Assembly (NCBI GenBank): GCA_039621445.1
Contig: CP154954.1
Span: 44,557,847-44,621,846 of the forward strand
Origin: Euglena gracilis
Taxonomy: Eukaryota
Direction: 5' to 3'
DNA length: 64,000 bases
The translations under genes and the position numbers were made by a program. How positions within the stretch are numbered: the first letter of the stretch is position 1; each line of letters begins with the position of its first letter. Below are positions 4,133-62,100 of this stretch, piece by piece. The notes below the pieces were generated by a model. That model was given only the letters and a program-made list of their open reading frames with translations. It was not told where the DNA came from and did no database searches.

Positions 4133-4562
4133 CATAGCTGGCACTTCGTTTAAAACGAAGTCAAAAAAAACACGTTTTTTTAAAAAAAAAAAACATGTTT
4201 TTTTAAAAAAAACAAAAAAAAAACGCCATTGAGGGTCCAGGGCAAAAAAAATTTTTGCCTTTAATTTTAGCTTTTTTTGCCCATCCTCGGTCAGAGAAAG
4301 ACACCAAATTTGGGACGTTTCAAGGTGAAACATCCCAAAATGGCAGAAAAATGCCCTATTTTGACCATTCTTGATGAAGACAACCAAAATTATTGGTTTT
4401 CAAGTCATTTGAGCTAAGATTGGTTAACCCTTGCGATCAAAGGCAAAATTTGGACCATCATTTTCCCCTTTGTTTTTTTTGCCGTTTTTTTTGCCCGTTT
4501 TTTTTAATAAAAAACAAAAAAAAACGTTTTTTTTAAAAAAAACAAAAAAAACGCCAGCTATG
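4133..4562. mobile_element. MITE family B, second near-identical copy
   Basis: Same TIRs; TSD ATTTTAAC on both sides. Confidence 0.92.
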
Positions 4563-22400: not shown

Positions 22401-25400
22401 TGGGCTGGTTGCATTGCCTCCGGTGGGAAGGGGGGTTGTGGTGGGCAGGTTGCAAACAAATGGGTGGTTTGGTGTGGGAAAAAAAATGCCCCTCCCCCCA
22501 TCCTCTGGGGTCACTAAGTGGCTCAATGTTTCCAGTGCATAGTGTGTGTGCTTACGTGAATGCGCACGCGCGCGCGCGTGTGTGTGTGCGTGCGTGTGTT
22601 TGGCGACTTCCAAAGTGTTCTCCATCAGTTTCTTTGTCATCTTTATCAATCACGACCAACTCCGTTTGGCCCCTCCCGGCCCAGTGACCACAATTCTCCC
22701 CGTTTTTCCAGGCCAGAGCTCAGGTCTGCCGGATGTGGAGGGGATGCGGTCGGCCACCGGTGCCTCCACCCCGCCATGCCGTTCTCAGGCTTTCCCCAAC
22801 GGCGACTGGGGGTTCAGACCGCCGCCGCCAGCCCCGACGGCGATGGCGCGGAAGACAGTTCCCCGGAGAGCGACAGCTGCCAGGCAGCAACTCCAGCCCG
22901 AATTTTTTTTCCACGGAGGTGGAAGCTTCCACAGACACAGCAAATGACGTTGAAACCGCCAAAAAAAAAGCAACCCTCTCTTTAAACAACCCCCAAATAT
23001 AAGCAAACCCGTTGTAGGGGGAAATGCATTTAGATTTGCATTTTTTTTTGCACTGTTGGGCATTTTTTTGCACTGTTGGGCATTTTCTTTAAACAACCCC
23101 CAAATATAAGCAAACCCGTTGTAGGGGGAAATGCATTTAGATTTGCATTTTTTTTTGCACTGTTGGGCATTTTTTTTTCAAATTTTCCAAAAAGGGGCAT
23201 TCTTGCGCATTTTTTTTTTTGCATTGTTTGTGTGTTTTTCCCCCATTTTTTTCCGGCGCATTTTTTGCTGTTCAGCGCATTTTTTTCCAGATTGACCAAT
23301 TTTTTCGTATTTTTTTGACCGTCTGTGCAATTTTTTTTTGTATTTTTTTGAAATTTTCGAATTTTTTTTTGAAATTGACATTTTCCACATAATTCCATTT
23401 AATCGTTGTAAATTTGGTGCCATTTTTGCATGTTTTTGGGAAATTTTGCATTTTCGTGATTTTTGTGATTTTTTCCCTCAAATTTTACACATTTTTTCAA
23501 AAAAAAATGTGCAATTTTCGTGCATTTTTTGCGCACTTTTTTTTAGCGGCTGGGCCAGCGCATCCCCCCCTGCCTTTGGCTGATTTTTAAGCTGACACCC
23601 AAACATAAAAACCCTCAAATACAATCAACTCCTGGCTGGATGAAAATTGCATGACACAGATGGGTCCTGTGCCAAAAAGCTCAGCTGCCTCCAGTTCCCT
23701 GTTTGCTGTCCCGGGTCTCGGGATGCATCCATGTATGTGGGAGAAGGCTCAAGATCCTCCAACGACGTTTGAGGAGGCTCTAGAGCTCCTACCCGGTCGA
23801 CCTCCCCCACAAGGCCTTCCCATACAGCCCTGCCCCCACGTTTTTTTCTTCCGTGTCTTCGGCGCCAGGCGCCAGGTGACCATTTTCTGCAGTTCCGGGA
23901 TGACCCCCACCCCTCGGGGGATGGGGGGGTCTGGAGCCAAAAACCAGTTAGGAATTTTTTTTGGTGGGTTTGGCCAAAAACCATTCATCCTGAGCAATTT
24001 TGGCCCTACTGGCCAAGGTGGCCCCCGGGGGGGGGGGGCAGGAATTGACCGACAAACTCGAACCGAAGTAGAAAGGATGACTAGATTTGAAGTGACTGAT
24101 TGGTTTTTTGAAAGAGGAAAGTTGGGGGTAAGCAATGGTATCCAGGACCAGTCATTGGCCAGCCCTTCGGCCTAAGGGTGGTAGTCTTTAAGAGTCTGTG
24201 CCCAGTATGCACAGAGGAACAGCTTGGCGTGGCTCTCAGGAACAAACGAGGGAAAATGAACATCTGATTGAATAATACCTAAAAGGGGCTTGTATGTATT
24301 TTTTATGTTATGTTTATTTTTGCTGATGTTATTTTTGGATTGCCCAATTTTTTTTTTCAAGGATGAAAAGCACTTGTTGCTGTTTATTCCGAGGTTTCAG
24401 TCTTTGAAAACAAAGCTTTCCTCAGGATGAACCACTTATGTCCAAAATTTCAGCACGGAAGGCAGGTTCTCATTGGCACGCATCATTCTTAAAAGTTTCA
24501 TGGTGGAGAGCTCGGTGCAACACCCCACGTTGGTGACTTTGGGGGACACCTGTACCCAGGGAGTACCCTAACTTTCAAAATCCGAGTTGTCATCCACAAT
24601 TTTTGGGGGTTTCAGCTAGTTTTGGGGGCTTTCGGTTCCAGGGTTTTAATCTCGCGAAAAATTTTGTTTGCTCACTTGCAAAAGTGGACCAGGTGCTGCC
24701 TCAGAATTTCTCATTTACCTGTGTGGCATTCACATCCGCACCTGAAACCCACAGGGCCCCTCAGGGCCCTGGAAATCTGCCTGAGCTGCTGAGTCGGCCA
24801 CCGACGGTTCCGCCAATTCTTTCCAGGGACGTGTTCCAACCAAGTGAAGTCAAGCAGTGTGGATTTCCCCAGGGACTGGCCATTTCACAGTTGCTTGCAT
24901 GCTCACCTTCGCCGCCGCCATCATCATCAGCGTTGCATTCATTACCATCCAAAGAAGCTTCATGGCGCTTGCATTCCCAGTTTCTTTGCTCAAAATAAAT
25001 CGCACAGAAAGTCACATCTGGAACCTGTCCTCGTGGTTTTCCCATCGAGGGGGAAGGGGTGCTGCCCCACGCCTCCTCATAACGCCTGGCCCACATGCGC
25101 TGACTTCTTCAGAGCCCCCCCCCCCCCCCGAGGCGCCACCCCCGAGGGGACACGCCTAAGGTGGACAAATTTCCCCACCGTCTCTGTCTTTGACGGGTCC
25201 GGAAGTGGTGGCTCCGACAGCACTGATGCCCCCACCGCCGCCCCTGCCGCAGAGCGTCGCTCAAGCCGAATGGGACCCACTCTGGAGGGCGTCCGCCCTG
25301 CATTCAATCTCAGCTTCTGTCAACTTTTAATTGGCTGCCTTGAACTGAGTGATGGCGTAAAGTGGAGCCCCCCCAGTGCCCCCCCACAGTGCCCCCTGCC

Positions 25401-30473: not shown

Positions 30474-30673
30474 CAGGGTTCGATATAAGGAGGGCGTACA
30501 TGGTTTAGATGGGGGGTGTCCCCCCCCCCCTCCTGGCCCACAGGGGGGTCCGGACCACCCCCCCCCCCCACCTGCAAGGGGGGTCCGGACCGACCCTGGG
30601 GGTGTCCCCCCCACCCCCCCCCTCCTGGCCCGCAGGGGGGTCCGGACCCCCCCCCCCCCTATATCGAACCCTG
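30474..30673. mobile_element. MITE family A, short copy
   Basis: Same TIRs; flanked by G8 on both sides. Confidence 0.85.
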
Positions 30674-31106: not shown

Positions 31107-44106
<13,000 letters not shown>

Positions 44107-45267
44107 CCCGCCGCACTGTCCCCCCCCCCCCGCCAAGGGAATGGCTGGAGGTCCCCCAAACCCTGCCACTGTGGCAAGCCCCGCCCCCCCCTTTCACCCA
44201 CCAGCCCCGTCACTCTCCCCTCCCCCCACACCGAACACCCTTTGCTCGAGACGGGTTTCCACAATTCCTCAGGCTGGCTGATTTGCCTTCTCATGGTTTT
44301 GCACTGCGCTTTTATTGGGGACGGACCAATTATGCCTCAAAAGAGGATTTTTTTTGCTCAAATATCCAAATTATTGTTTTTTTTTTGTCATTTTCACATC
44401 AAATTTGCCAGTATTTTCGAGTGTTTTTGGACCTGAGAAGGGGGGCATTTTGGGGGTTTCTTTGGCTTTTTTGAAGGGGGGGGCATTTATCAAAGCCTTT
44501 GTTTTGGCTGCTGGGGGTATGCATTGGTCAGGGTATTTCACACAATTAGGACGCTGCATTTTGGGGGGGGGGTCACTGGCACAAGCTAAGCAAGCAACCA
44601 AAATGGCCTGGGAAGGTGATAACCTCATGGGGTGGCAATTTCCTGCGGAGGGTGGCAATTACCGGCGGAGGTGTGAAATCGAACTAGGAACATCTGAAAT
44701 CGGCTTTGTTGCAGGTGGATAACTGGGGTTCGTTGTAGGGGACATGTCTCTGCACACGTTGCAAACGCAGCCACAATCAGCAACATGCGTGTTCGAAAAG
44801 CGTAGGTCCGTGAAGGAGATGTGATGCGATTTCCCCCTTATCATTGCCAAATCTCCACATCGCCGTCAACCAAACGTCGCGCCTGCAATTTATGCCTACT
44901 ACATTGGCGGAGAGTTCGAGTGTTCATGCCTCTTCCCCAGAAGGTGTCATTTCGATGACGATTCTTTGTGAATGAGTACCAATTCTCCTTCGCGGTCAGC
45001 ATGGAGGCCGGCCATCCCCTGACTTCCCCCTTGCACTGTGACGACTGGCGTTGCCTGGCGCACTGCACTGCCTTGAATTGGGGCCCTTTTCCCTCGCCCC
45101 ACTGTGGATTGCACCGTACCAGCCTGCTCGTCGGGCTTGTTGTTTGGTGTCAAATGGTGTATGGGGATCAAATTCACCTCACAGGATGCAGTTTTCTCCC
45201 TCGCCCTCTCCCATCTTATTTCAACAAAGAGAATCATTTGATTTGTCTAGAAAGATTCTCGGGGGCT

Positions 45268-45347
45268 GTGTATATGTATGTATGTATGTGTGTATGTGTG
45301 TATATGTATGTATGTATGTGTGTATGTATGTATGTATGTATGTATGT
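45268..45347. repeat. (TATG)n microsatellite
   Basis: Direct reading. Confidence 0.9.
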
Positions 45348-46727
45348 CGGGAGGGTGGAGTGAGTGGGTGTCCGGTGCTGGACCCCCCCTGGGTTGGTTT
45401 CCGTGGCGGTCCCGGGCCAGAGGCCCGGTTATGGGTTTCAGTGTGAAGCATTGAATTTTTTTTGAAAATACCCTCAGACGGCTCGATTTTCGTGGTCCGT
45501 GCCCCCCAAGGGTCTCTCACTGGCTTTGTTGGGGAGGGAACCTTTTTAAAAAGAAGCCTGAATGGAATGGAATGGATGAATGGATGGATATGCGTGTGTT
45601 TTTCATACAAGTATGTATGCACACATACATGTGAATATATGCATATATGCCATAAGTCTCCTTGAGTTGCTCCCCTCCGGTGAGGGGGGGTAGCTGCAGG
45701 AGACCCATGACATGGGGAGACACACGGTGAATGATGGTCTTCCCTTCATATGCATGTATGTATGCGTGCATGTGTGTGGAGATATAAATGTTGTTCCTGT
45801 CGTCTTTTTTTTGTCATGACCCCCTCCTCCATCTCTCCAATGTCATTTGTGCTCAGCCCTGGTTGGGACCCATACGCCATTGTGGTGTCCCTCCCGTCCA
45901 CGTCTTGTTGTCACCCGGGTTGCACTGCCCTAGGCTTGTGCACGCTGCCCCTTGGGCAGCCCCCCCCCCTGTCAGCTCTCAGTTGACGGATTAGCCGCCG
46001 ACCTCCCCGCCTGCCGGGGGGACGGTGTGTTCTCCCTCAGCCCCTCTGTTTCCTTTCCCTTTCCCTTGGGGGTGAGGAGGCACAAGGGCCACACCCTTCA
46101 GATTTGTCTCTGGCCCCTCGGGATTGCCTCACGCCTTTGTACTTGTTGATTTGCCCCGACACAGGTGCTCGGATGGGGTGCATCGCACCGTGTTTTTTGT
46201 ATTTGCCTGTTTTCTGGGGGGGTTGTCAATTTTTCCTGTAATTTTGGAATGTAATTTTGTATTTTTACTCAGGTTTTTTTCCAGGAAAATGTTTCCAGAT
46301 CAATTCAAGTGCCGCCGGGGCACTGTTACCAACCTGGCCCCATCGGGAGTCGCCCTGCCCCAGTGTCCTCACCAACTTGGCCAAAGCCCACTTCGCACAA
46401 TGGCGCCCGGCCGCGGTGTTGCCCGCCCTGCAGTGTGTGCCACGCTGTGGTTGCCCCCCCCTCCGGGCCACGCCTTGGCCTCGGGTGGCTGTCCACCACC
46501 AAATGGTATGCTCGGAACTCCGCCCAAGGGGGACGGCCAGAAGTGACCGATTCCATTCCCCTCACGGCAAACGTTTCCCCGGGTTCAGTGCCCAGGGTGT
46601 TCACATCACAGGCCACCTCGCGGTGAAATCGTTTCGCGAAGCCCAACCCCTTCCGGCCAGTCCCTCCCCACCCCTTCAGGCGGCCGAAGCGGCGGGAAAC
46701 GCGCTGAGCAGAACTCTACAGCATGGG

Positions 46728-46854
46728 CAGGGTTTGATATAAGGAGGGCGTACATGGTTTAGTTGGGGGGGGGGTCCCCCCCCCCACCCCCCCCTCCTGG
46801 CCCGCAGGGGGGGGTCCGGACCACCCCCCCCACCTGTCCTTATATCGAACCCTG
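46728..46854. mobile_element. MITE family A, 127-bp minimal copy
   Basis: Near-perfect TIRs; TSD AGCATGGG. Confidence 0.92.
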
Positions 46855-47483
46855 AGCATGGGCCGAGGGGTTTGGCGGTGGCATTTGGGGTCCGCCCCAC
46901 ACGGTGGGAGAGGACTTTCCACCAACCAGACATTCACATCTTGCAAACCAGTCCCCCACTTCCAACCCCCCCCTCCCCTGGGCCCAGTCTTTGGTCACCC
47001 GGGTTTAAATGAACAGATTTTTGGTTGTTGTTTTTTTGAGAGTATTCCGGCTCCAAGGGGTCTGTGGCTACAAACCAGTCAATTATTCAAAATCATACCA
47101 GTCAGTCACCCCTCAAGTTACCAATACTCAGCAATGGCATAGCCCTTCCCCAAGCCTCAACGTCCATTCCTCTATTCCTTTTTTGGACAAGCCCAAACCA
47201 AATCAGATACCTTTTGGACGGGGTCCAACTCTGAGGCTGGAAAATTTGGGCTGGCTGGAAATAGGCTGGTGGCTGACCCCCCCCCCCTTTCATAAGCTCC
47301 CCCAATGGAATTTGGTTTGACCCTGGGCCAAACGAGATGCAAAAAAAAGTGAAGCCCAGAAAGCTGCAATTTATGCCAAAAAACTGATTTCCCTAAATTC
47401 GGTGCCGTGTGATCAAACTGGTGAGCCTGTGCATGTGTGCATTGGTCCAGCACACCCACACATACACAACACAACACAGCCGG

Positions 47484-47510
47484 TTTCTCTCCGCAGGCTT
47501 TTCCCCGCAG
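47484..47510 (+). promoter_or_regulatory. Putative trans-splice acceptor(s) for gene 3
   Basis: GTTTCTCTCCGCAG and TTTTCCCCGCAG just before the ATG; the first motif is also present upstream of gene 4. Confidence 0.5.
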
Positions 47511-47515
47511 TTCCA

Positions 47516-50500
47516 ATGACTGGTGCGTGGGGCATGGTGGTATGGTTCATCTGTCACGCTGCCTGGTCCTCCATGGCAGAGGGTGTGTTACTGCCCACCC
47601 CCAATTTTCGCAGCCTCCCCCCCCCCCCTGCAAACCCACCAACCTCACCACCAAGCGGCGCGCTGGCCAAGTCCTCGGAGGCCGGTAGTCCCCGTAAGGG
47701 AGGGGGTCACTGACCTGTTGCAGACGCCAGAGAGGAGGCATGGGGCTGGAGGATAGCAACGGGATCCTCCTCCTCCCAAACACCCACCATAGGCCACGTC
47801 ATTCGGATCGGGGGGGGGAGGCTGCGGAGGAACCCACGCTGAAAAGGCTGCTGGATGACCACCCCCTTGGGGGGAATGCTTTCCTCAAAAACCCAGTCAC
47901 TCACTTCCGACCTTGGGTCGTTGCCTCAGATCAGGAGTTATCCCGTTTGGCTTCCCCCCCCAAAAAAATGGCTGGCTTCGGTGGGTTGCTTTTGGCCGTC
48001 CAGAGATGACCCCCGCGGACTGGTATATATTTTAAAAAGATCAGAACAACCCTGAACCAAACGACTTGGGGAAGGGAAGGCAAACATTGTTATGCATTTC
48101 CCAATCTGGCTGTCATGGGCGCCGGGGGGGGGGGGCTGCGAGCACCGATTACGTCGAACACGAATTCAAATATGTCTTTAAGTACAGTCTGGACAAAAAT
48201 GACACACTGAAAAATAAAGGCAAAAATGATGGGAAAAATTGATGGGAAAAAAATGACTGGAAAATTTCGGTTTTGGAAATTTTGACTTTTAACAGAAAGT
48301 AGTAATAATTTTCCCACTTGTGAGGAAGGATATTCAGCAAAAATGACAATACAAAATTTCAAATGGTCTTCTGGGTGCATTTTTTGTGTTTTTTTTCATA
48401 AAAAAGTACCCCAAAATTGACCAAAAGTCATACTCCATCTTTTTGGATGTGAAATTTGACTACGCCTGAACACGGTTCCCCCAAAAGGGCGTAGACAAGG
48501 TATGGGGAGAAAAAAATGACTGGACAGAGAATGGAGAAAATTGGGTGTTTTCCCATCGTTTTTGTTTTCCCGTCATTTTTTGTCTGGACTGAATATTTAT
48601 TAAGCATCTGAGTTCATTGCCCAGCGGCATCACACGCCACCATGCAGGGAACAACATGGGGGTGGACGACAACTCGGACGTGTTGGGTCAGGCAGCCCTC
48701 AATGCTGCTGCCCTCCTCGTAACCCAAACCGCCTCCACCACAGACAAGTTATTGTTGTTGCAGTTGTTGTTGTTGTGGTTCCAGGCTTGTGCTCAGTCGG
48801 GTGCCTACACCACGGGGGGGGGGTGATAGGGGCAGGCACCTTATAGCCGACCCTCCGGGGTGTGGTAGGGTTTTTGGGGGTGCCTGCCCATAGCAGCCCT
48901 CCGACCCCGGTGCCAAAGGCATCGGGGGCCTGGAAAAGGCCATTTTCAATGAAAATTTTCTGGGTCCCCCCCGGACCCCCCCCGGGGGTGTGCCTGCTAG
49001 GGGCAGGCACCCTAGAGCACCCCCCCCCCCCCCCCCCGGTCCACAAGCATGTGTTGTTGTTGTTTCTGCTGCTGCTGCTGCTGCTGCTGTCTGATCTTTG
49101 CCTGGGGCAGGGAGGGGGGCCCAACAGACTGGACGTCGCCGTTGAATCAATTTTGCTTCATTTTGGTTCCTCTTTTTTTAAGAAAAAAATGACAGAGAAT
49201 GGCCAAAATTGGTTAAAAAAGCATAGTAAGAATGCAAAAAAAAATATAGAAAAGGTGGATGGCCCCTGAAAAATGGCCAGAAATAACCAGAAATGGCTAA
49301 AATTGGCGTAAATTTCTGAAAGAGGCTTGAGCTTTATGCAATATATCGCCTATAAGGTTGGCTCATAATTGTCAAAAGTCAAGAAAACGCCAAAGTGGCC
49401 AGCAATGGGCAAGGTGACAAAATTAGCTAAACGGACATAAACACCCAAAAATTGGCCATATACCCCCATTTATGGCCAAATTTCTGATTTTGGGTCCCTT
49501 CCTCCCAACTTGTCAAAGACCCCCCCCCCTCGCCGGCTGGAGTTGAACATTAGCTGTTTTGCGCCCCGCCCCGCCCCCCCCCCCCGGTCAGAGAAAAAAC
49601 GCTGGTTTGTGGAAAAGGAGAGGTTTTGACCCCCCAAAAAATCTGCTCTCCCCCCGAGTCCCCCCCCCTAGCCCCCCAGGGAAGAGTGTGCTCTGTGGGG
49701 TGGCAGGGAACCCAGAACCCAACCCAGACCGCCCATAGAGCCGCTGGAGCAGCGGCGGGCGCCAGCCGTGCCTCGACGACTGCCTCGCCACGCGCAGCTT
49801 CGCTGCGTGCCCCCCGCTCTTGGATTCACTTAACACCTGTGTGACCCCACCCCCCCCAAGGGGAGGGGGTTTGAGTGTGGGTGGTGGGTTGGGGCTGCCG
49901 GACCCCCATCCCCCCCGGGGGGGTGCACCATCGGTCAGGTTTTGGCCCGGCCAAAGGCCGGGCCGAAAACAATTTATCAAGGGTTTTCGGCTGATTTTGG
50001 CTGTACTTTGGGTGGGTGGGTGGGTGGTTGACCCCGGGGAGGGGCCTTGGGTCGGTGGGTTTCCAAAAAAGTGGGCGGTGGGTTTGGGTCCGGGAAAAAG
50101 TGCCCCCCCCCCCGGGGGGTCACCAAGCGAATCCATGGCCCCGCTGCCGGACGCCTGCCGGCAGTGCCTCGGCGTCTGCCTCGCCGTGCCGGGCGGCAGC
50201 ACGGCCTGTGTCACCCGCGGGGCGCTGTCCCTGTCGCGTGGATGCGTGCCGTAGTTTGGTCAGTTTCGGCGGTGGCGGCGGGGGATGTGTGCCGGGGAGC
50301 GGGGCGGGGAGCGGGGACCATCGCCCCGCGGCCCCGACCTCTGCCTGGCTGTGCCGGGGCCGTGCACCCCCTACACCCTCTGCCCCGGCGGTGGCGGGGA
50401 AACCGGAAGGCGGGGGCCGCGACTGACTTCCCCACCGAAGTTTGTACCGATGGTGCGCGGGGTCAGGGTGCAATGGACGGAGGGTGTACATTCAGGTGAG

Positions 50501-52052
50501 GGTCCCCCACCTCCCCCTTCTTGGACCGGATGGGGGCGGGGGGGGGGTCCGACCCGCCACCTACCAGGACCCACACCACCTTGGGGTCCCCCCAAAAGGT
50601 CAAAATTTTCCTTCCATCAATTTACGCCAAAAATTTTGGCAATTTTGCCAAAAAGTGTCCCCCAAAATGGCCCAGAATGGCATTTTTGGCTGATTTGGGG
50701 GGTGGGGGGCAAAATTCTTCGCCCGGCGTTTTGTGCCAGGGCGAAAAATTAGTCGCTCGGACAGCACCGCTGTTTGGGTGGTCGACCCCCCCCCCCTCCT
50801 GGACTGGGGGAGGGGCCGACCCACCCCCCACCTGCCCTCACATTGGACGGCAATGCATCCACAGACGGACATCAGCAGCTTTGAGGGCACACCTTTGCAT
50901 GTGCTTTAGGGCAAAATTATTGGACCACCCAGTTTTCCAACATTTTTCCCCACTATTTTATGCCCAATGTTTTCCTAGGCTCTCAAGAGAAACTGCTTCC
51001 TTGTTCACTTTTTGGGGGGACTAATTAGGATCATCATAAACATGAAGCCAAGATGGGCAGGAGAAGCAAATTTTTTTAAAAAAATCTTTTTTTGTTGTTG
51101 TTTTTGGAATTTCTTCGGCTGGAAAACTATGTGTTTACATCCAGCCTGAGCCCAGAGCAGGGATTTGAGGGCTCTTTGTGATCTCGTGCTCCCTGTCATC
51201 TGGCTGGGGCGGTTTTAACAGGCGAGGTGGTCATTTGCAAACCAAAACCCTTCCTGCCTGCCTCTCCCCAAGGCTGAATGGAAACCCTGGAAATTGCACA
51301 AGTGGTATGGAATAGGGGGAGGGGCTTCGCCCTTTCTCCATCGCCACCTATTTCCATTTGAGAAGGACCGATGGGCTTCTTCGCTGCGCCACGCCCAGGC
51401 TTCTTTTTAAGTCAGAAGACCCCCCCCCCTGGGAGGTAGGGGGGTGGGTCCGAGCCCCCCCGGGGGGGTCCCGCGCCGGAAGCGCCGGGTGTACGTTTCG
51501 GCAATTTCCAAAAATTGCCTTTAATGGGCCTGATTTTGGGGGGGGGGGGGGGGGGGGGTGAAGCCTGGGGGTGTTGTGGGGGCCTCAACCCAGCGTTTCC
51601 GCCGCCATGGGTGGGGGTTCGGGGGGGTGGGGGGATGTTCGGGACGAACGCCGGGCAGGGGTGGGGGGGTGGGGGCGGGGGGGGGGGGGGGGGGGGGAGG
51701 GGGGGGGGGGGGGGGGGGGGCGGGGGGGGGGGGGGAGGGGGGGGGGCGGGGGGGGGGGGGGGGGGAGAGGGGGGGGAGGATACGCAGGGCGCGTGGACCG
51801 GTGGGAACGGAGACAGCAGAGAGACGAATCCGGAAAAGGGCAGAACGGGAAGTATGACGTGCGTGGGGGGTGGGGGGTCGTACCAGAGGAGCACGGCGTT
51901 CTGCGGGTGGAGTGCAGGTCGAAAGGCTGACATGGGCCTGACATGAGCCGGGGGCAGGAGGCGGAGCGGGCGGCGCCGAGCCTCAGGGTGAGCGGAGAGG
52001 GCGGACCACGCCCCGACCCCGCGATTGCACCGGCGCCAACGAGCGGAGACGA

Positions 52053-52084
<32 letters not shown>

Positions 52085-52510
52085 AACACAAGGGTGGGAA
52101 AAGGCATCGAGATGACAGGTACCGGGAATCAAAGCGTCACGAGAGGAGCAAGGAATCCGAGTTGTACAAGAGGAGCAAGTCTTCGGAGCGTGATGAGCAG
52201 GATGAGGAGGGAGGGTCGTATGCCAGAGACTCGGAGTCCAAGAGCTTTGCCAAGAACAAGGAATCCGAGTTCTCTGAATACTCCAGGGATGGAAGCCGCC
52301 CCGGCACAGGCGGCTACCGTGACCGTGGCACGGATTCGGAAACGGAGCGCTATCAGAAGAGCAAGGAATCTGAGGACTACCACAAGAAGCAGGAATCGGT
52401 GTCCGCCGACCGGGATGGGGATGGCGGGTCGTACCAGAGGAGCACGGAGTCGGAGAGCTCGGAGAAGAGCAAGGAGTTCGAAAGCTACTCCTCCACCCGG
52501 GAAGGAACTA
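47516..52510 (+). CDS. Secreted Cys-rich protein gene 3 of unknown family. Exons ~47516-47575, ~48656-48750, ~49745-49815, 50143-50212, 50336-~50400; probably also the charged exon ~52042-52510
   Basis: MTGAWGMVVWFICHAAWS signal-like N-terminus; WSSGGRQPCLDDCLATRSFAACPPLPDACRQCLGVCLAVPGGSTACV|DLCLAVPGPCTPYTLCPGGGG is collinear with the paralog at 56802. Confidence 0.7.
49816..50142 (+). other. Nonconventional intron, 327 nt: MITE-like insert with 8-bp TSD, absent from paralog
   Basis: CTTGGATTCACTT/AAGCGAATCCATG termini; TSD CCCCCGCT/GCCCCGCT; empty site at 57584-91. Confidence 0.88.
50213..50335 (+). other. Nonconventional intron, 123 nt, shared with gene 4
   Basis: CCGCGGGGCG/CGCCCCGCGG perfect 10 bp; join GTC|GAC. 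Confidence 0.88.
50464..50845. mobile_element. Degenerate family-A-like MITE
   Basis: Starts CAGGGTGCAAT; internal CCAAAAGGTCAA and AATGGC blocks; right TIR and TSD not clear. Confidence 0.5.
52042..52510 (+). CDS. Highly charged Asp/Glu/Ser/Lys/Arg exon with poly-Asp and internal repeats
   Basis: SGDDDDDDDDDDDDEHKGGKRHRDD...SKESE and GGSY repeats; long open frame with coding-like composition. Confidence 0.7.
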
Positions 52511-53759
52511 CCCATCGGCGTGAGGGGGCGGAGGACATGGTTGGGCAGGGCTGTATGGGAAACCCTCTTGGGTTGATGGGAGGTGGGGGTCAACCACCCC
52601 CGCCCCCATCCTGCTTGCCAAGCTGGGCGATGCTGAGCGATGCTGGGCGATGCTGGCATTTTCTTGTACGTTTTGAAGAATTAAACCCATTTTTAGACTA
52701 ATGGGGGTACGTGCCCCCACCAGGACTTCCTGGATTCTTGGGGGGCACCGGCTCTTTGGGCAAGTTCTTCGTTGTGTATATGGTGCTGTGGTGAGTCGGA
52801 AGATGCGCATCACGCTGGACACCGTGGCCAGGCGGCTATTGCTTGTTTCCAGCCCAGCTTGTCGCATCCTCGAAACCCTCCCCCAAAAAGCTGTGTAATT
52901 TTGTCACTGTCGAATATTTTATATTGGGAGATCAATCGTGGGGGTCGACCCCCCTCCCCCCCAACCCCGCAGCCTGGCCTTTCTGGACAGCCCTGGGGCC
53001 GGGGCCGGGGAGGGGGTGGCCATGGGGCGGGTCCCCCCGTTGCTGGCGGAGGCGCTGCGGACCGGGGCCGCGGCCCACTCCGATTGCCCCCCTGCCGCTG
53101 CCGGGCGGTGGGCGTGTTGCTCGGCCTCGACCCTGTCAAGGGTGCCCGTGTACCTGGATGTACCTGTCCACTTCAGGAAATAATTGAGAAACGAAACGAC
53201 GGGCGAACACCGAAAAGGCCTTTTTTCAAAAAAAAATTCGGTGCCTTCGGCGTCGGACCCCCCGTCGGCATCGGACTCTCCGGGAAGTCAACATGTTCAG
53301 TTCAGTTCGGAAGTGAATTGGGGGGGGGGGTCCCAGCGGACCCCTCGAAACACAAGACCCTCGCTGAGAACCTTTTTTGGTTAGGTGGAGGTTTCTGTTA
53401 AGTTGCATGATTGCCGTTTGATGGCCTTTTTTAGGGGTGGACACAAGGCGTGGGGACTGATTGTATTTCTGAACATTTTTTTGTGCATTTCGAAAGTTCT
53501 GAAGCTTACTCGACTTCAGTTTCCTGTTGTATGCAGTCAGGTGGGACCCATTGCCCAAAATTATTTGCAGCCGATGGTCGACCGCACCACCATCCACAGG
53601 TTTTCATAAGCCCTGCCGCGGGGGGGGTTTGAAGAATACAAAATGGAATGTCCGCAGCATACAGTGCAGTGGGGGACTCTTCTGCTTTGTCAGCACATTC
53701 TTTGACCCAAGCAGCTGTATCGTCCCAAAGCCCATGCCCCAATAACTTTACTGCTGTTG

Positions 53760-54130
53760 TACGGTTGCCAAGCTCAATATGCAGTAAAGGCACCCATTGA
53801 AGCCCCGTGGACCGTCCCGCTGTTTGTGTTGGCCTTTGGAGCCAACATGGCTTGGGCGCCCTTGGCGCGGGGGTTCAAGCCAACTTCAAGCGAGCAGGCA
53901 CCCCCCGGCAGGCGGGCTGCCCCGGCCCCCAGCCCTGAGCTTCGGCTCGCACGCAACGCCCCGGGGCGACGGGAGTCCCCACCGCCCCCGCCGATGCGTA
54001 GCGCCGACGAATGGCTTGGCCGGCCGTCGCGTCCGCTGCGGGCTGCGCCGGGGTTGGCCGCCGGCGGCGCACGCGTCCGGGATTGGACGGCGTTGGTGCC
54101 AATGCCTGGGGACGTCTGCTCTCCCCCCGA
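53760..54130 (+). CDS. Possible exon(s), unknown product
   Basis: GC-rich open frame with a hydrophobic stretch (WTVPLFVLAFGANMAW); no recognised motif. Confidence 0.25.
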
Positions 54131-56390
54131 TTTCCATCGCACCCACCCGCCTTGGAATGGGTGGATGGATCTGAAGTGGAAAGGTCGTATTGTCCGGATA
54201 GGCATCCGAGGACCCCTGACGCCCCAGGCGCCCATGTGGTGCAGGCTGTACCTGGATGGTCCGGGGTGTCTGGACAGGTCGGTGGGACAGCATTTGCATG
54301 GTGGTCGACCGCACCACCATCCACAGGTTTTCATAAAGCCCTGCCCGGGGGGGGGGTTGGGTCCCGGATGGGTCTTACCCCCAGCCAAATTGCACCTGGA
54401 AATGCCTATTCCAGGCTGGCGGTGCCGAGGTTCTGCATCTCACACATCATACCCTGCCCTGAAACTGGACCCGCACCGGCCCCCCTCCCCCGTCCCCCCT
54501 TCACATGTTTCGGGTGCACCACCCCCCACAAACGTTTTCCTGCGGCGCCAAAGGCACAGAAGGATTCTGTTCGCAAACTGACATGTGGTGCCCCCCCCCA
54601 CCACCACAGCCCTGCCCCCGGGAGTTAGACACCTGCTGTTCGTGTTGGAATCCCAGAGACATTCTCGGACCGTTGCTGGGGAGGGGGGCGAATTCCGCCC
54701 CGGCCGGCTTTGCCAATGGCCGGATCCGGCGTGGCCCGGGGCCCAGGTGTTCCACTGACCGTCACCCCCCCCCCCCCCGAATGGCCCCCCTGAGGGGGAG
54801 GGGGCCCCCGAGGAGTATGGCCCGCGGCCTGCATAGCTGGTCGACGGCAGTCCGGCAGTACCACCGGCCCCGTGCCTGGGGGGGGGAGGTTTGCACTGCA
54901 GAGATGCCATTGAGGAGTGCAGGTGTATTGTGCCGGGACGAAAGTTGGTGGCGCTGGTGAAACCATCACTGGGAAAGTTGGCAATTCTAAACTTAAACAA
55001 TTTACACTGATTCAGGGCGGACATCTTTTTATAGAAACCGTTTTATATGAACGGTGTTTGGCGGGATTTGTTTGAACAGAGTTGGGACAAAGATGATGGG
55101 AAACACAAATGATGGGAAACCACCGAAATCTTTTGCATCATTTTCAGAACATTTTCTGCTGCATTTTGCTGATGTGCATTGAAGTGTGTATTTTCAGAAT
55201 TACCAGCACATTTCACACATCAAGAGATGGGTAATGGAATTTGCTTTGGCGATCTAAGTGAGTTGGGGGAAGAAACCCTCAAAAATCCATTTCTGGTCTG
55301 TTTGTTGAGCATAGAGTTTGTCTAATTTCATCAACCAACACAAGTTTTGAATTTTTTTAGATGATTTTGGTTTTCCATCATCTTTGGTTTCCCATCATTC
55401 TTTCCAGGTTGGATCCTGTACATCTGCATATTTTGAGTACAGCGCCATTTTCGACTGTGCCGCATTTCACTCACAAGTGGTGCTGGCCACCCTTTGTTTG
55501 GAATTGCCACCCAGTTGGCGCAGACCCACTGGTGGAAGACATGGCTGCCGAACTGGTTGTACATTCCCCCTCTCCTGTCAGCGCATCGTTATGGCTGTCG
55601 CAACGCACACCGTTTTGGCGGTCTGACGGCGGCTTCGTGTGCTGCAGTCACGGTATTTTTTTGCACTGGACCCCACCCTGCCCCCTGGGAGGTGGGGCTC
55701 CAGCCAGCCAGCCAACGCTTTTTTTCCCCACCAGAACTCCCAACTGGGCTGCGGATGCGGGGGGGGGGGGGTCGAACAGAAATAAAACCTCCGCAGCCTG
55801 GTGCAGCCAGGCTGGGCCGACAGAGTGTTTTCGGTACAAACCACTGAACATTTTTCAATCAATGGGTCCAAATGCTTAAAAGGGCCTTTTTATGAGGGTT
55901 TTCGCCTCAAAAGTTTTTTTTTTGTGTTTTCAACCCGGGCTTTTTTGCCCGGTTTTGGGAGCCAGCCGGGTGCAGGGTCCACTGTGAGTCACCGTTTCAC
56001 TTTGGGGAGGGCGTGGGGGGACTCCAACGCATCTGGGAGGGGGAGGGTCCTTCGGGACACGGGACGGGGTGGGGCACGGGGCAACGCCATCGAACAGCCG
56101 CAGTTGTGGGGGCGATTGAGAACTGACTGCGGCTGCTCATTTAGGAACGCCCCCGCTGCACTGCAAGTTAAACGAACATTGGGAAAGCCACAGAAATCGA
56201 TGAAGTCGTGGATCGCTGGATGGGGAGGAGGGCCATGCAGGAGGAGATCTATTTGCCACGAGTGGTTGTGGAATTCGAAATTCGGCATTGTCCCTCATCC
56301 CCCCCCATAAAAACTGACCGGAAGCTTGAATAATCCACCATCTTGTTTGGAAGCTTGCCGACAATAATCGCTAAATCAACTGTGTGTGTA

Positions 56391-56395
<5 letters not shown>

Positions 56396-56439
<44 letters not shown>

Positions 56440-56456
56440 GTGTGTGTGTGTGTGTG
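56396..56456. repeat. (GT)n microsatellite
   Basis: Direct reading. Confidence 0.9.
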
Positions 56457-56758
56457 ACACCTCAAGGAATTCCGCGAACCCCCTCTCCGGTCATATTCAA
56501 GCCGATGGGGCTTGTGGGGGATGGGGCGGGAAAAGTTTTTGGGCACAAAACCCATGGGTGCGGGTGCAGGTGTGGGTGTGGATGGCGTGTGTGTGCTGTG
56601 GGCATGGTGGGCAGGCAGTGGCTAGCCCCTGTAAAGAAAAGGCCCAGAGGACTGTTGTTCCGAGGCATGTCCTTAAACACCCCCCCGCCCCACCCAACTA
56701 ACCTTTTAGTGGGGGTTCGGAGCAACCCCGGCATATGACTCACACACCTCCACCACGT

Positions 56759-56772
56759 GTTTCTCTCCGCAG
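56759..56772 (+). promoter_or_regulatory. Putative trans-splice acceptor for gene 4
   Basis: GTTTCTCTCCGCAG, identical to the motif upstream of gene 3. Confidence 0.5.
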
Positions 56773-56801
56773 ACAGGCCTGCACTTGCGACCCCACTTTG
56801 G

Positions 56802-59165
56802 ATGAATGCCGCGTGGGGCATATTGCTGTGGTTCATCTCCCACGCCGTGTGGTGCTCCGGCGCAGCGGACGACGATCCTGATGCGATGCGCCGGGCCCTC
56901 CTCCGCGCGATGCGGCCGGGGGTGGCGGCCGGGGGCCCGGCGGCGGCCCCCCTCGTGACCCGGCCCGCCGTCGCCACAGACAGACAGGCAGGTTGCAGCA
57001 GTGATTGCTGTTGCCTGGGTGTTGGTGGAGGAGGAGGAGGAGGAGGTGGTGGTGGTGGTGGTGTCCTTGTCAGGCACAGACAGACAGAGCCCAACCCAGG
57101 CACACTGGCAAACCCTGCTTTTCCTTTCGGCCAACGGGAACAGGGTATTTTTTTTAAAAAAAGGCATCCCCCCCATGGAAATTCTCCTCCCCGGGAAATT
57201 GTCCTCTGTCTTGTTTGCACCCACCAAAGTCCTCATAGGGGCGGCGAAAAGAGCCAATACCCCACAGATATGACTACAAAATACCCAGAATGCAGAAACT
57301 GATGTAAAATGTGCAAGATTGTGAAGAAAAAGACTGTGTTCCTCCTGCCCCGGCCAGGAGACAATTTCCCGGGAGGGGAGTATGTCGTGTGTATCACGTA
57401 GGATAACTGTGTGTCGGATGTGTGTGTGGGATAGGAATGTGTGCATGAAATCATATTGGGTCGGATACAGAATGGAGGCACATTGTCACATGTTCACTCC
57501 AACCTTCCAATGCGGATTGGAGCGGCGGCGGGCACCAGCCGTGCCTCGACGACTGCCTCGCTATGCGCAGCTTCGCCGCGTGCCCCCCGCTGCCGGACGC
57601 CTGCCGGCGGTGCCTCGGCGTTTGTTACGAAGTGCCAGGCAGCAACGCCGCCTGTATCGCCCGCGGGGCGGTGGGCGGTGTGCAGTCCTCGTCAGGCTTT
57701 TGCTTAAGGGATTGCAGTACCCCGCCCCCCCCCCCCCCGGGGGGGCTGGACTGCAGCTAGTCCAAATTTGGCTATTTGGCTAGTGGGATTTATAGCAGAC
57801 CCCCCCCGGGGGGGTCTGCTAGCAGGGCTAGCTAGTGGAAAGATTTTTTCCAGTGACCGGCGCAAAGCGCCGGAAATTTTTTGGGACCCCCCAAAAATGG
57901 CCAAAAATGCCCGTTTTTGGCCATTTTTGGGAATTTTTGGAACAAAATCAGCCAAAAACCTGTAAAAGCCCTCATTTTTCCAGTCCGGGGGACCCCCGAA
58001 CCCCCCCCCCCCGGGGGGGGAGGGGGGTCCAGCTAGTCCACTTTTTCCAGTGTCTAGCCGATTGGCTAGCCAGTACCCCCCCCCGGGGTCCTTAAGCAAA
58101 AGCCTGGTCCTCGTGCAGGGGAAAGGTGCCCCCCCCCCGCGGGGGTCACTACCTACCCCCCCCCCCGGGAAACTGTCATGCCCGAGAACCTGTCAGGGTC
58201 CCCGGCACCGGCCAACCTGTCAGGGTCATTTTTCATTGACTTTCCCTTGAAATGCCCTACCCGGGAAACTGTCAGGGTCCCGCCCGGGAAATTGTCAGAG
58301 TCCCTGGTACCGGCCAACCTGTCAGTATAGGAAGTCGTCAGGGTCCCCGGTACTGGCCAACCTGTCAGGTGACAGACAGTTTCCCGGGGGGGGGGGGGTA
58401 GGTACCTCCCCCCCCCCCTTGTCCAACGACCGGGCTTGTCTAACGACCACCCCCCCGGTCAGAGACGATCTTTTTGTATACGATGTTGGTTCGGCCAAAA
58501 TTGCTAAAAGTTGGCTAAAAACAGTCAAAAATAGCCCAAAATGGCCTAAAATGGCCAAAGGATGGCCAAAAGTGCCCAAAAAGTTGCCAAAAATAGCAAA
58601 AATAAGGCAAAAAATGGCCAAAAGTAGCCAAAAACAGCCTAAAGTGGCCAAAAATGGGCAAAGGGGGCCAAAGTGTGGCCAACAGTTGCCAAAAGTGACC
58701 AAAAGCGACCAAACATGGCGAAAAGCGGTCAAAAATACCTAAAAATTCCCAAAAGTGCCCCAAAAATGTCCAAAAATGGCCAAAAGTGGCCTACCGTAGT
58801 CAAGAAATAGCATAAATGGCCAAAAACAGCCCAAAAATGGCCATATACCCCTATCTATGGTAAATTTTCCTCCGATTTGGGGTCCACCCCCCTTGTCTAA
58901 CGACCACCCCCCCTGGTCGGAGACGAACATTGGCCATTTTAGCGACCGCCCCCCCCCCGGTCGGAGACGAACATTAGTGGTCGTTGGACAAGGGGGGGGG
59001 GGAGGTATGTAAATCTGTGCTCATGGTGCGCGCGTTTGCGCTCCGGTGCACAGTGGTGTGCGGGGGTTCCACCGCTCCGCGGTGTCGACCTCTGCCTGGC
59101 GGCGCCGGGGCCGTGCACCCCCTATGTCCTGTGCCCCGGCGGCGGGGGGGGGGGGGAGGGGGGCG
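56802..59165 (+). CDS. Secreted Cys-rich protein gene 4, paralog of gene 3. Exons ~56802-56985, ~57518-57658, 59087-~59165; likely continues downstream
   Basis: MNAAWGILLWFISHAVWCSG signal-like; WSGGGHQPCLDDCLAMRSFAACPPLPDACRRCLGVCYEVPGSNAACI|DLCLAAPGPCTPYVLCPGGGG. Confidence 0.75.
57693..58106. mobile_element. MITE family C, 8-bp TSD
   Basis: TIR CAGGCTTTTGCTTAAGG/CCTTAAGCAAAAGCCTG; TSD GTCCTCGT. Confidence 0.93.
58405..59005. mobile_element. MITE family D, near-identical copy
   Basis: Same TIRs, TA flanks and internal GGCCAAAA arrays. Confidence 0.9.
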
Positions 59166-62100
59166 CTCAAACCCCGGGAGGCGGAGACCCTCCTCTAAGG
59201 GAAAGTATTGGTCTGGTTTTTGGGGGATATTTTCCTCATAATTCATACAATTGTTGTAAATTTGGAGTCGTGTTGCATGTTCTTGGACAGTTTTTGCATT
59301 TTTGTGACTTTTGCATTGTTCCTCTCGACCTTTGAGCATTTTTGCGCATTTTTTTTTAGAGCCCTCCGCTTTTGAAGTTGCTACGAACCATTTTCGCGAA
59401 TTTGAATTTGTGGTGTTGATTTGACCTGTCACGTCCCTCGGGCTGGGGGGGGGGGTAGCTTTGGGGTCCGACCAATCAACAGTTTTCCCAGGCATTGGTT
59501 TTTTTGGTCAGAATTTTCTTTCGGCACCCTCGCCTCCGGAGGTTTTTTTCTTTGCGTGATGCCCCACTTGGAGAGCAGTTACGTTTATAGGACAATCATA
59601 CCCCCTTTGGGTCTGGCTTCTTTTTTTTTTTACTTGGAAGGCACTCCTAAATTTTCAGTTTGTCTATCTATCGTCTATTGTTCACTCCCTTTCCACTGTT
59701 ATTACCAGGCTTCCATGGCACAGGGTCGACGTTTCCTCCAAATTGTTGAGTTGGTCATTTGGCCTTTGAGTCGCCGGTATTTCCCGAAAGTACAAAAATA
59801 TTTTTTGGGTTTGGTACACAAACCCAGGAAAAAAACTGCAACAAAATTTGGGTTTTTTTGTGACGTTTCAGTGTTGTGTCCCCATTTAAGTGCAGTTTTG
59901 TGTGTCGCCTGAATTAAATTTAAGGCTTTCCCAAAGTTTCATTCAAAATGTACCCCACACGTTTTATCGTCATTTTTAACCCACTCGCATTTTCACTCTG
60001 ATTCATTCCCCAAGGGTGTGGATGCAACGACACACCCCACATTACGAGGGCGAACTGACCAGTCAACCACCTCAAAAAAGCAGCCACACGCCAGGATTTT
60101 TTTTTGCCGAGTCAAACATTTCCGATTTTAGCCTCCATTTCGCCTGCGTTTGGCCCAATTCCGGGCATCGCTACCCGGCCAGCCCTAACCCAAAGCCTGA
60201 CACATTTGCTCTCCCCATCCCCACCCTTCCGCCGATCGGTCCGAGAAACGCGCGTGCGAGCAAAGCCCCCCCCTCAGGTTTGCACCAACCGGGACCCCCC
60301 ACCCCTCCCCGTGGCGGTCGGTGAAGGGTCCCGCTGGGCTCGGGGCCGGGGGGGGGGGGGGGGGCGAGGCTGCCCCCCTATCCCTGCCCCCCCCATATCA
60401 GGCCCTTTTTGCCCTAACAATGGGTCGTTCATCACACCATATGATGGTGCTTCGCGGGACGTTTCGCCAAATCGCAATTCCGAATTCCGAAGCGTGGCAT
60501 CGGCGTTGACACCCACCCAAAACCATACCGTTTGCGATTCGCATCCCGTTGCCGCGGGGGGTCCGGCCACCGCCGCCCGCCGCCGGGCTCCGCCGGGCGG
60601 CCGCCTGCCGCGTGGAGTGCGCCGCGGTGGGCGCCGGCGCCGCCGGGCCGGGCGGGCCGTGGGCCGGCCCCCCAACCGGGGACGTGCGGCCAGGGCTCCC
60701 TGGGGGCGGGTTGGGGCTCCCCCCCACAGCCAAAGGTTCCCTGGGGGGGGTTTCCGGGCCACCAACGGGCTGTTCCCTGCCCCAGACTCCCCTTCCCTGT
60801 GGATGAGGTTTAGTTTCTGGTGCGGCCTGTTTTGGGACGGGGCGGCTGGACGGAAACGGATTTAGGCCGCGTCTTGGTGGACATCGACCGAAAATGCCAG
60901 GTCAAACTTTAGTTGCATAGTTTGTTCATTTTTGGGTTTTTTTTCCGGATCAAGTTCGTCCTGGGGCAGCCCAGGTTCCAGCCGGGGACCCTTGATGAAC
61001 CCCCCATGTGCTTCACTCACCACGCAGCACTCACCGCCCATATGCAAGCCCGCGTGCCAGGAAAGCGAAACGGTTGTGCACTCAATTGCATATGTCGCTC
61101 ATCTCTCAAAGCGGAGCCGCAAGCCAGCACAGAGGGCCCTGTGGCTGAGACGGGCAGCCTCAGGAGCCAGACCCTCCGCCTTGCCAACCCTTGCCCATGC
61201 AAGCTGCTGGTTGCAAACCCTGTTGTGTATGACCATCACCTCACAACTGACTCACCTGTTCTCGCCCAGGACGTTGCTTAAGAAAACTTGACCCCACCCC
61301 GCCAGCAGCCGCGGACCCCCCTCCCCCCCCCCCAGCAACGAGAGTATTTATTTCCACCCGCCCTTTGGGCGACTGGACGGTAACGGATTTTTCGCTTTCG
61401 GGGGTGCGAAAATGGTCCAAAAATGTGTCGGCAAATGGCTGTCCAGGACATTTTTTGGGGTCAAAAAATCGGGAGTGTTTGATTGATGCGTCGGATTATG
61501 CGAGGTCGTCTCCCAGCCCCCCGGAAGTCCCCCAGTCTGTCCACCTTCTCTGCCCCGTTTCTTCTTTTTGGCACCGATTTGTTCGGCCCACTGTGGGCGG
61601 GGGCTTGGGGGGTTGAAGCCGGCACCGCCAGGGGGCCCTACCCCCCCCCCCCATGCCTGTCCTGCCAGGCCGGTGGTTGGCCCAGGTGAGCGCTGTCGGC
61701 CCGGCCGGCAGCAGCGGGCCCACCCCATGCCCATGCCCCCCCCCCCCGGGCAGTGCGGTGCGGGGCCAGGCTTCCAGCTCACAGGCGCCGAGGGCGGCCC
61801 GGGCGGCGCCGCAGGGCCAAACGCCGCAGAGGCCCCCGCCCCTGGAGAGCCCGGGCAGGGGGACCTGCAGCGGGGGGGGGGGGGGCGGGGGGTGCCGGCC
61901 ACCCCTCGCAGGGCAATGCCTGGTGGCCGTGGCAGTGTGGGCAGGAAGCTGGGTTGGGTTGAGACTCCGGACGGCGGAAGAAGGGCGGGGCGGGCAATTT
62001 TCTCGGAGACCCAGAACCCCCCAGACTGTCACTCGAAGGTGGCGGACGAATGGGAGGCGGCAGTGGGATGTGACTCCGTCTGGAGACCGAACCCCATCGC

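Follow-up and report, generated by a model that had tools for sequence, protein, structure and literature searches.

An insert resembling a miniature inverted-repeat transposable element in one of two paralogous cysteine-rich genes of Euglena gracilis: a candidate nonconventional intron

Nonconventional introns have been reported only in euglenids and diplonemids (PMC6221363). The splicing code of these introns in Euglena, 5'-N3CDG-/-CH'GN5-6|R, has been defined genetically; it fits 61.2% of the nonconventional introns, which make up 71.8% of the introns of E. agilis, and the signature is missing from 38.8% of those annotated (PMC12501133). An origin from elements similar to MITEs (miniature inverted-repeat transposable elements) has been proposed since 2014 (PMC3935182; PMC12501133), border repeats resembling target-site duplications and species-specific intron positions have already been noted (PMC3935182; PMC11282704; PMC12501133), and the origin is still described as unclear in the discussion of PMC12501133. 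In the introners of Micromonas, Aureococcus and dinoflagellates, a transposon inserted in an exon is removed by the spliceosome at GT/GC-AG sites that it carries or co-opts, and the duplication helps to restore the frame (PMC11282704). Here, we analyse a stretch of 64,000 nt from Euglena gracilis (contig CP154954.1; the whole stretch is called the window below), in which the coding-like, cysteine-rich block of one gene (gene 3) is interrupted by a 319-nt insert that is missing from its paralogue (gene 4). MITEs of the hAT type make 8-bp duplications and often have CAG...CTG ends, and other superfamilies also make 8-bp duplications; the insert likewise combines an 8-bp duplication with short inverted ends. 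The features on which the comparison of the two genes rests are the following.

49819..50137, no strand: MITE-like insert of 319 nt, missing from the paralogue, with inverted ends and a flanking repeat
49811..49818, no strand: upstream copy of the target duplication, CCCCCGCT
49819..49831, no strand: 5' terminal inverted repeat, CTTGGATTCACTT
50125..50137, no strand: 3' terminal inverted repeat, AAGCGAATCCATG
50138..50145, no strand: downstream copy of the target duplication, GCCCCGCT, with its sole mismatch at 50138
49745..49815, forward strand: left half of the gene 3 cysteine-rich block, ending at the 3+5 junction
50143..50254, forward strand: right half of the gene 3 cysteine-rich block, with the stop codon at 50252-50254
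57518..57673, forward strand: unbroken block of gene 4, in which the empty site CCCCCGCT occupies 57584-57591

The two halves of the gene 3 block align to adjoining positions in the gene 4 paralogue, with blastn identities of 93.2% over 74 nt (49745-49818 versus 57518-57591) and 83.1% over 89 nt (50139-50227 versus 57585-57673). In the 13-nt terminal inverted repeats of the insert, 11 of the 13 positions pair as complements, and the likeness between its two arms extends further inward once gaps are allowed for the indels found there. The 8-bp direct repeat that surrounds the insert is identical at seven positions out of eight. An initial annotation of this DNA had described the insert with its inverted termini and flanking repeats in gene 3, as well as a single copy of CCCCCGCT inside an unbroken block of gene 4, and both sites read as it claimed. 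It was equally right that the CC|GCTG junction is in frame and that the lone repeat mismatch falls inside the excised part.

The boundaries were fixed beforehand by the paralogue alignment and, given this, the joint chance of the repeat and the ends is ~3e-7. This estimate comes from a scan of all starts and all lengths of 100-1000 nt in the window (57,154,034 combinations), in which 0.16% of the combinations had a flanking 8-mer repeat of at least 7/8 and 0.019% had 13-nt ends that reached 11/13 or better. The terminal pair of the insert was verified by script; it was absent among the 25 of 48 inverted pairs listed by the repeat search. The GC content of the insert is flat over the three codon positions (0.67/0.63/0.61), which indicates no codon periodicity and a composition that is not coding-like, and the open frame running through it (49739-50251) gave no Pfam match. 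Thus, several of the features by which a MITE is recognized, namely inverted ends, an 8-bp duplication with an empty site, short length and lack of coding capacity, are found in the insert.

Since inverted ends and a target duplication are present together, insertion accounts for the difference between the paralogues in one step, and we consider it probable that a MITE-like element inserted, after the duplication, into the coding-like block of one of them. A non-autonomous DNA transposon of 319 nt with imperfect 13-nt ends would have entered the cysteine-rich coding block of gene 3, most likely after the gene 3/gene 4 duplication. An element that pairs from its first base and is flanked by an 8-bp duplication would have the geometry of the Euglena code by construction, and if the RNA were cut at 49816 and 50142, the element and 8 nt would leave together and the frame of the target would be restored exactly. 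In this explanation, we infer the timing of the insertion, the mobility of the insert as a member of a family and any splicing.

The target itself looks like coding sequence in both genes. Third-position GC is 0.96 in each half of the gene 3 block (49745-49816; 50144-50227), where positions 1 and 2 have 0.62-0.75, and 0.88 in the gene 4 block, below the value of gene 3; the five homology-defined papain exons of the window, taken as a reference, range from 0.71 to 0.98. All seven cysteines of the 52-residue block are common to the two genes. Further upstream, the pair has the following candidate coding starts.

47516..47572, forward strand: candidate first coding block of gene 3, with an ATG and a hydrophobic, signal-peptide-like start, aligning with 56802-56858 (77%)
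56802..56985, forward strand: candidate first exon of gene 4, with an ATG, a hydrophobic start and a linker, open from the ATG

In both copies, a GTTTCTCTCCGCAG acceptor-like tract, the ATG and the hydrophobic start are conserved (47516; 56802), and third-position GC in gene 4 stays at 0.8-0.95 from 56802 to ~56982 and is 0.3-0.45 thereafter. The alignable islands are collinear and correspond, in gene 3 coordinates, to 47516-47572, 48704-48746, 49745-50227 minus the insert, and 50318-50399; their edges are sharp and the spacers between them unalignable, a pattern that suggests constraint on the two genes. Between two of the islands, gene 3 has 1132 nt (47573-48703) where gene 4 has 82 coding-like nt (56859-56939), and this excess is either another presence/absence difference or a decay of the first exon. 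Genes 3 and 4 are probably a lineage-specific pair of small, secreted cysteine-rich genes, of which gene 3 may have fallen out of use. Splice codes alone were compatible with too many exon-intron models of the two genes to single out one. Among the 20 long frames of the window searched against Pfam, only a papain fragment at 36617 and noise were returned, and an Rfam search of the window gave no match.

The window carries the euglenid-type nonconventional intron code. It contains two papain-like genes (Pfam Peptidase_C1), whose exons were mapped with the homologue P0004. The intron of papain-like gene 1 at 14989-17223 (2235 nt) reads GCA-CAG...CTG-GATTT|G and splits ...RNS|WG...; its joined flanks give residues that are found uninterrupted in gene 2 and in P0004, and it matches the published code N3-CAG...CTG-N5|R exactly. 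Immediately before the exon at 36653 of papain-like gene 2 stands CTG-GCTGC|, an intron ending without a usable AG (~36600-36652) that lies just before NHAV. The intron positions of these genes differ, gene 2 being continuous at RNS|WG and gene 1 before NHAV. The '3+5 rule' invoked by the initial annotation is therefore real, as it agrees with the code of PMC12501133 and with a homology-defined intron of the window itself. As for the papain-like genes, the active-site motif of gene 2 is ...QCAASWAF... (33428-33511), versus ...CGSCWAF... in gene 1 and the homologues; its catalytic cysteine is apparently replaced and the product may be an inactive protease homologue. Downstream of gene 2 lies a long (GT)n microsatellite followed by (GGGTGT)n (37137-37435), and two GC-rich tandem-repeat blocks of opposite orientation are located at 38000-38320 and 40085-40440.

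When the code is applied to the insert, the following register is obtained.

49816..50142, forward strand: stretch of 327 nt that is a candidate nonconventional intron when read in the 3+5 register, geometry N3...N5|R

The 5' arm has GCT before it, the 3' arm has GCCCC after it and G stands at 50143, so that the 3-nt and 5-nt spacers and the purine are all in place. This spacing arises automatically because the 8-bp duplication supplies 3 + 5 = 8 bases, and as the two spacers together make up one target duplication, a cut of 49816-50142 would restore the codons of the paralogue. Like the nonconventional introns of euglenids, the insert lacks GT-AG borders, has inverted ends that could pair and so bring its junctions together, a 3/5 spacing and a purine next to it, and it also has direct repeats at its borders and a paralogue-specific position. 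Its 8-bp border repeat is nearly intact, whereas none can be recognised in the older intron at 14989-17223 in the window. The insert is thus a candidate newborn nonconventional intron. However, the base of its stem is CTT/ATG instead of CDG/CH'G.

The ends of the insert could form a stem. The duplex of the 20-nt ends has an energy of -15.1 kcal/mol, versus a mean of -4.96 (sd 2.25) for shuffled ends, of which 2 out of 1000 reached the observed value; the gene 1 intron gives -19.4 kcal/mol, and two of the CAG...CTG elements of the window give values from -22 to -24 kcal/mol. Enforcing the terminal stem costs 0.4 kcal/mol (-165.4 versus a minimum of -165.8). A spliceosomal introner of the Micromonas/Aureococcus type was considered and rejected, since no GT/GC-AG pair restores the paralogue sequence: in none of the nine registers that the repeat permits would a GT/GC...AG pair excise the insert together with its duplication and nothing else, and the GC start at 49816 combines only with AG sites that leave extra codons. 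Where introners depend on the spliceosome (PMC11282704), the insert would use the euglenid nonconventional pathway; the two have in common a transposon in an exon and a duplication that helps to restore the frame. Insert and duplication together measure 327 nt, or 3 x 109, with no stop in the gene frame and three and two stops in the others. At this length, an open frame was obtained in 762 of 20,000 shuffles (3.8%) and in 12% of 327-nt windows; combined with the in-frame length (one in three), the joint chance is roughly 1-4%, and we give this property little weight because it was noticed after the fact. Both the in-frame length and the open frame are necessary for a retained insert, and dispensable for a spliced intron or in a dead gene.

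The window scan returned 74 combinations, mostly of low complexity or situated in tandem arrays, of which 11, including the insert, were judged clean by eye. These elements measure 127-435 nt, and eight of them have perfect 8-bp duplications, each different. Their ends are CAG...CTG in seven cases, CAT...ATG in two, TCG...CGA in one, with the insert as the remaining case. Apart from the insert, they are:

7627-8020, 15435-15834, 30474-30673 and 46728-46854: four-copy family of 127-400 nt, with ends CAGGGTT[C/T]GATAT / ATATCGAACCCTG, which are those (CAG...CTG) of the Euglena nonconventional-intron code
57693..58106, no strand: gene 4 element of 414 nt, with ends CAGGCTTTTGCTT / AAGCAAAAGCCTG and the perfect duplication GTCCTCGT
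18134-18450: relative of the gene 4 element, with CAGGCTG...CAGCCTG ends
2014-2439 and 4133-4562: CAT...ATG family, 97% identical, with ends CATAGCTGGC / GCCAGCTATG
34353-34662 and 18790-19224: further clean elements from the window scan

In the four-copy family, the duplications are perfect and specific to each copy (CCCGGCGT, GGGTGCTT, GGGGGGGG and AGCATGGG), and the two CAT...ATG copies, which come closest to the insert in end type, are likewise flanked by perfect 8-bp duplications (TCCCCATA and ATTTTAAC). The gene 4 element lies directly after the cysteine-rich block of gene 4, is missing from gene 3 and shares CAGGCT...AGCCTG ends with 18134-18450, suggesting that genes 3 and 4 were each hit independently by an element (49819-50137 and 57693-58106, respectively). 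As these families comprise two to four copies with different duplications, their mobility is evident; the genome carries active or recently active small elements that make 8-bp duplications, and the insert is of like build. A tRNA-Leu(CAG) gene on the reverse strand (34662-34734) directly adjoins the 3' end of the element at 34353-34662.

With the small elements of the window (127-435 nt), the insert has in common its shortness, terminal inverted repeats, an 8-bp duplication and the lack of coding capacity. Unlike the families of two to four copies, it is single-copy in the window; its ends are CTT...ATG, those of seven of the elements CAG...CTG. Its ends match those of none of the other small elements of the window, and it is for this reason not of the same family as the 57693-58106 element. 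The structure makes it plausible that the insert came from a different MITE family, the status of which as a family we infer. The insert may be hAT-like: it has an 8-bp duplication, and its terminal bases fit the hAT consensus only in part. A scan of metagenomes for the 3'-end pattern gave 13 matches, and in a blastn of the insert against these 13 loci, three hits were obtained, none of them extending past the 22-nt pattern; since the alignment is confined to this pattern, the metagenome matches are attributed to chance. A partial relative at 22425-22528 has a ...GGGGTCAC[C/T]AAG...ATG ending in common with the insert, and no partner arm is detectable for it. A recurring module, GGGAAA(n)-[G/A]TGCCCC...GGGGTCAC, makes up the final ~45 nt of the insert (50092-50127) and occurs also at 58118-58153, beside the gene 4 element, and at 22478-22518, in the partial relative; perhaps it is a mini-element in its own right, or else a subterminal part common to these sites.

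Sequencing reads were considered over the locus. In the run search, no RNA run was listed as containing the window, and 16 DNA-type runs of one label contained at least half of its words; five RNA runs of raw reads were matched by species label only. Reads were placed on 46500-59500 at a likeness of 90 from X19 and X20 (RNA), X1 (DNA, same label) and X17 (DNA, second label); the two RNA runs consist of raw reads that carry the same species label, and roughly 5% of each was used. Most RNA reads lie only partly on the stretch (3497/3554 for X19 and 1867/1904 for X20), and poly-C/poly-G loose ends dominate among them. The bin 49972-50405 has an RNA depth of 1.28/0.36 in X19 and 0.12/0.38 in X20. 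In the bin 49538-49971, depth is 14-22 for one read direction and 9-18 for the opposite one, which we do not read as expression because the C-runs of this bin collect loose ends. Neither a joint 49818>50146 nor a splice junction was found among the 15 joints listed (1769 more lie beyond these). Among the DNA contigs, that of X17 (50132-50613) enters the insert by 6 nt and that of X1, beginning at ~50115 by our reconstruction, by 23 nt, both shorter than the 31 letters of the bridging rule; they give a hint that the insert is present in other samples. X1 and X17 agree at 7/7 listed variants (50184-50290), and therefore the second label is no real outgroup. DNA contigs of X1 also connect 49855 with 50012, adding a single letter, at a depth of 97.8; C-run/G-run sequence stands on both sides, so that repeats may have produced this joint artificially and it need not reflect a shortened insert. 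Palindromes of the type C(n)G(n), frequently enclosed by GTGAC...GTCAC, occur throughout the window, e.g. at 49018, 49564, 57720-57738 and 59141-59163. The word depth of such runs is 1e5-1e6 in public DNA contigs, versus ~30-90 for unique sequence, and RNA reads accumulate on them with poly-C/poly-G loose ends.

A number of observations weigh against reading the insert as a MITE-derived newborn intron in a gene in use. There is no second full copy of the insert in the 64-kb window; its best non-self match within the window, at 22425-22528, is 67.6% over the final 108 nt, and the core 7-mer of its 3' arm appears once in the window. Divergence is 1/8 for the repeat and 2/13 for the arms, plus inner indels, similar to the 7-17% that separates the paralogues, and the insert is therefore not recent. 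At the stem base, CDG at +4..+6 or CH'G at -8..-6 (or -9..-7) is found in 0/9 registers allowed by the repeat (starts 49811-49819, ends 50137-50145). The 3+5 register reads CTT/ATG, with the pairing C-G, U.U, U-A, and single substitutions in CAG or CTG each abolished splicing in Euglena gracilis knock-ins (PMC12501133). The unconstrained minimum-energy fold leaves the ends of the insert unpaired, and over the full 350 nt the fold does not surpass that of shuffled sequences in stability (z = 0.53). RNA depth, in the sample of 5 in 100, is ~1 or less over both gene copies outside the C/G-run bins. As for the target, the 46 differences in the four islands are distributed as 12/15/19 over codon positions 1/2/3, without concentration at the third. 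The 52-residue block gave only two repetitive, spurious matches among 1.84 billion representative proteins and, as encoded by 57518-57673, no relative in two word-indexed protein searches, and none of the 76 plus-strand frames of 43000-50300 had a Pfam match above noise. The upstream part of gene 3 is longer than that of gene 4, has a lower third-position GC and seems worse preserved.

Four explanations have to be weighed against this background, of which removal, retention and a silent copy are each compatible with an insertion after the duplication. That the insert is a working nonconventional intron, made by a MITE after the duplication and removed exactly at 49815|50143, is possible but rather doubtful. 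The 3+5 geometry, the purine at 50143 and the ends able to pair all speak for it, as do the use of the nonconventional pathway by the organism (in-window introns; PMC12501133), the third-position GC of 0.96 kept in both flanking halves and the annotated introns that share the lack of CDG/CH'G. Yet this motif, essential in the knock-ins, is missing in all nine registers, no read crosses the junction in RNA sampled at such low depth, and a spliced intron would have no need of its multiple-of-three, stop-free length. Removal at the predicted junction is rated low because the CAG/CTG-type motif is missing at the stem base. Of the claim that a different MITE family made an intron after the duplication, the MITE-like anatomy, the coding-like target and ends unlike those of the other elements of the window stand, but the splice motif expected of an intron is not found. 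That same length would be explained if the insert were retained in the message as an in-frame, stop-free insertion of 109 codons, either as a proto-intron stage or as a variant protein, and transcripts with a retained intron were detected in the knock-ins only when frame and stops allowed it (PMC12501133). We consider retention unlikely: the composition of the insert is not coding-like, an addition of 109 residues among the conserved cysteines would probably upset a small domain held together by disulphides, and the open frame was noticed post hoc.

Somewhat easier to entertain, though still short of an even chance, is the explanation that gene 3 is a silent or decaying duplicate and the insert one of many transposon hits in dispensable DNA. 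The lack of third-position bias among the 46 differences, the absence of protein relatives, the disruption of the gene 3 upstream part relative to gene 4 and the repeats that pepper both loci would all be expected in such a case; on the other hand, the interrupted block has a higher third-position GC than the uninterrupted copy, 7/7 cysteines are kept and the sharp-edged islands suggest constraint. Very unlikely, in our view, is that the element predates the duplication and that gene 4 has since lost it precisely, a loss for which recombination with a spliced complementary DNA (cDNA), a deletion from one 8-bp repeat to the other or a clean excision could account. Repeat and arms have diverged to the same order as the paralogues, so that the ages overlap, but two events are required instead of one. 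Excision of DNA transposons usually leaves footprints, and gene 4 keeps or has gained interruptions nearby (57693-58106 and beyond), which argues against a loss mediated by cDNA. Insertion of a MITE-like element after the duplication thus remains the probable account.

A filled site with a nearly intact duplication facing an empty paralogous site is the snapshot that the MITE hypothesis predicts. Moreover, CAG...CTG elements with perfect 8-bp duplications would explain why the spacers of the code measure exactly 3 and 5. Neither a statement linking 3 + 5 to an 8-bp duplication nor an account of CAG...CTG elements that are repeated in Euglena and flanked by 8-bp duplications was found in the literature, our coverage of which was incomplete and had the supplements of PMC12501133 outside its scope. 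Because the essential motif is missing from it, the insert also offers a natural probe of the strictness of the code. It may tentatively be proposed, as a whole reading that we regard as less probable than not by a wide measure, that the splicing code is the RNA image of a transposon insertion, the CAG...CTG stem corresponding to the ends of the element and the 3 + 5 spacers to the duplication. If the code were such an image, every insertion of such an element into an exon would be born removable. The CTT...ATG insert would then belong to a second family, caught before acquiring the canonical motif or without needing it, and would survive because its 327 nt keep the frame open. If this proposal is true, one transposon superfamily would account for the spacer lengths, which have long lacked an explanation, and for where most Euglena introns came from.

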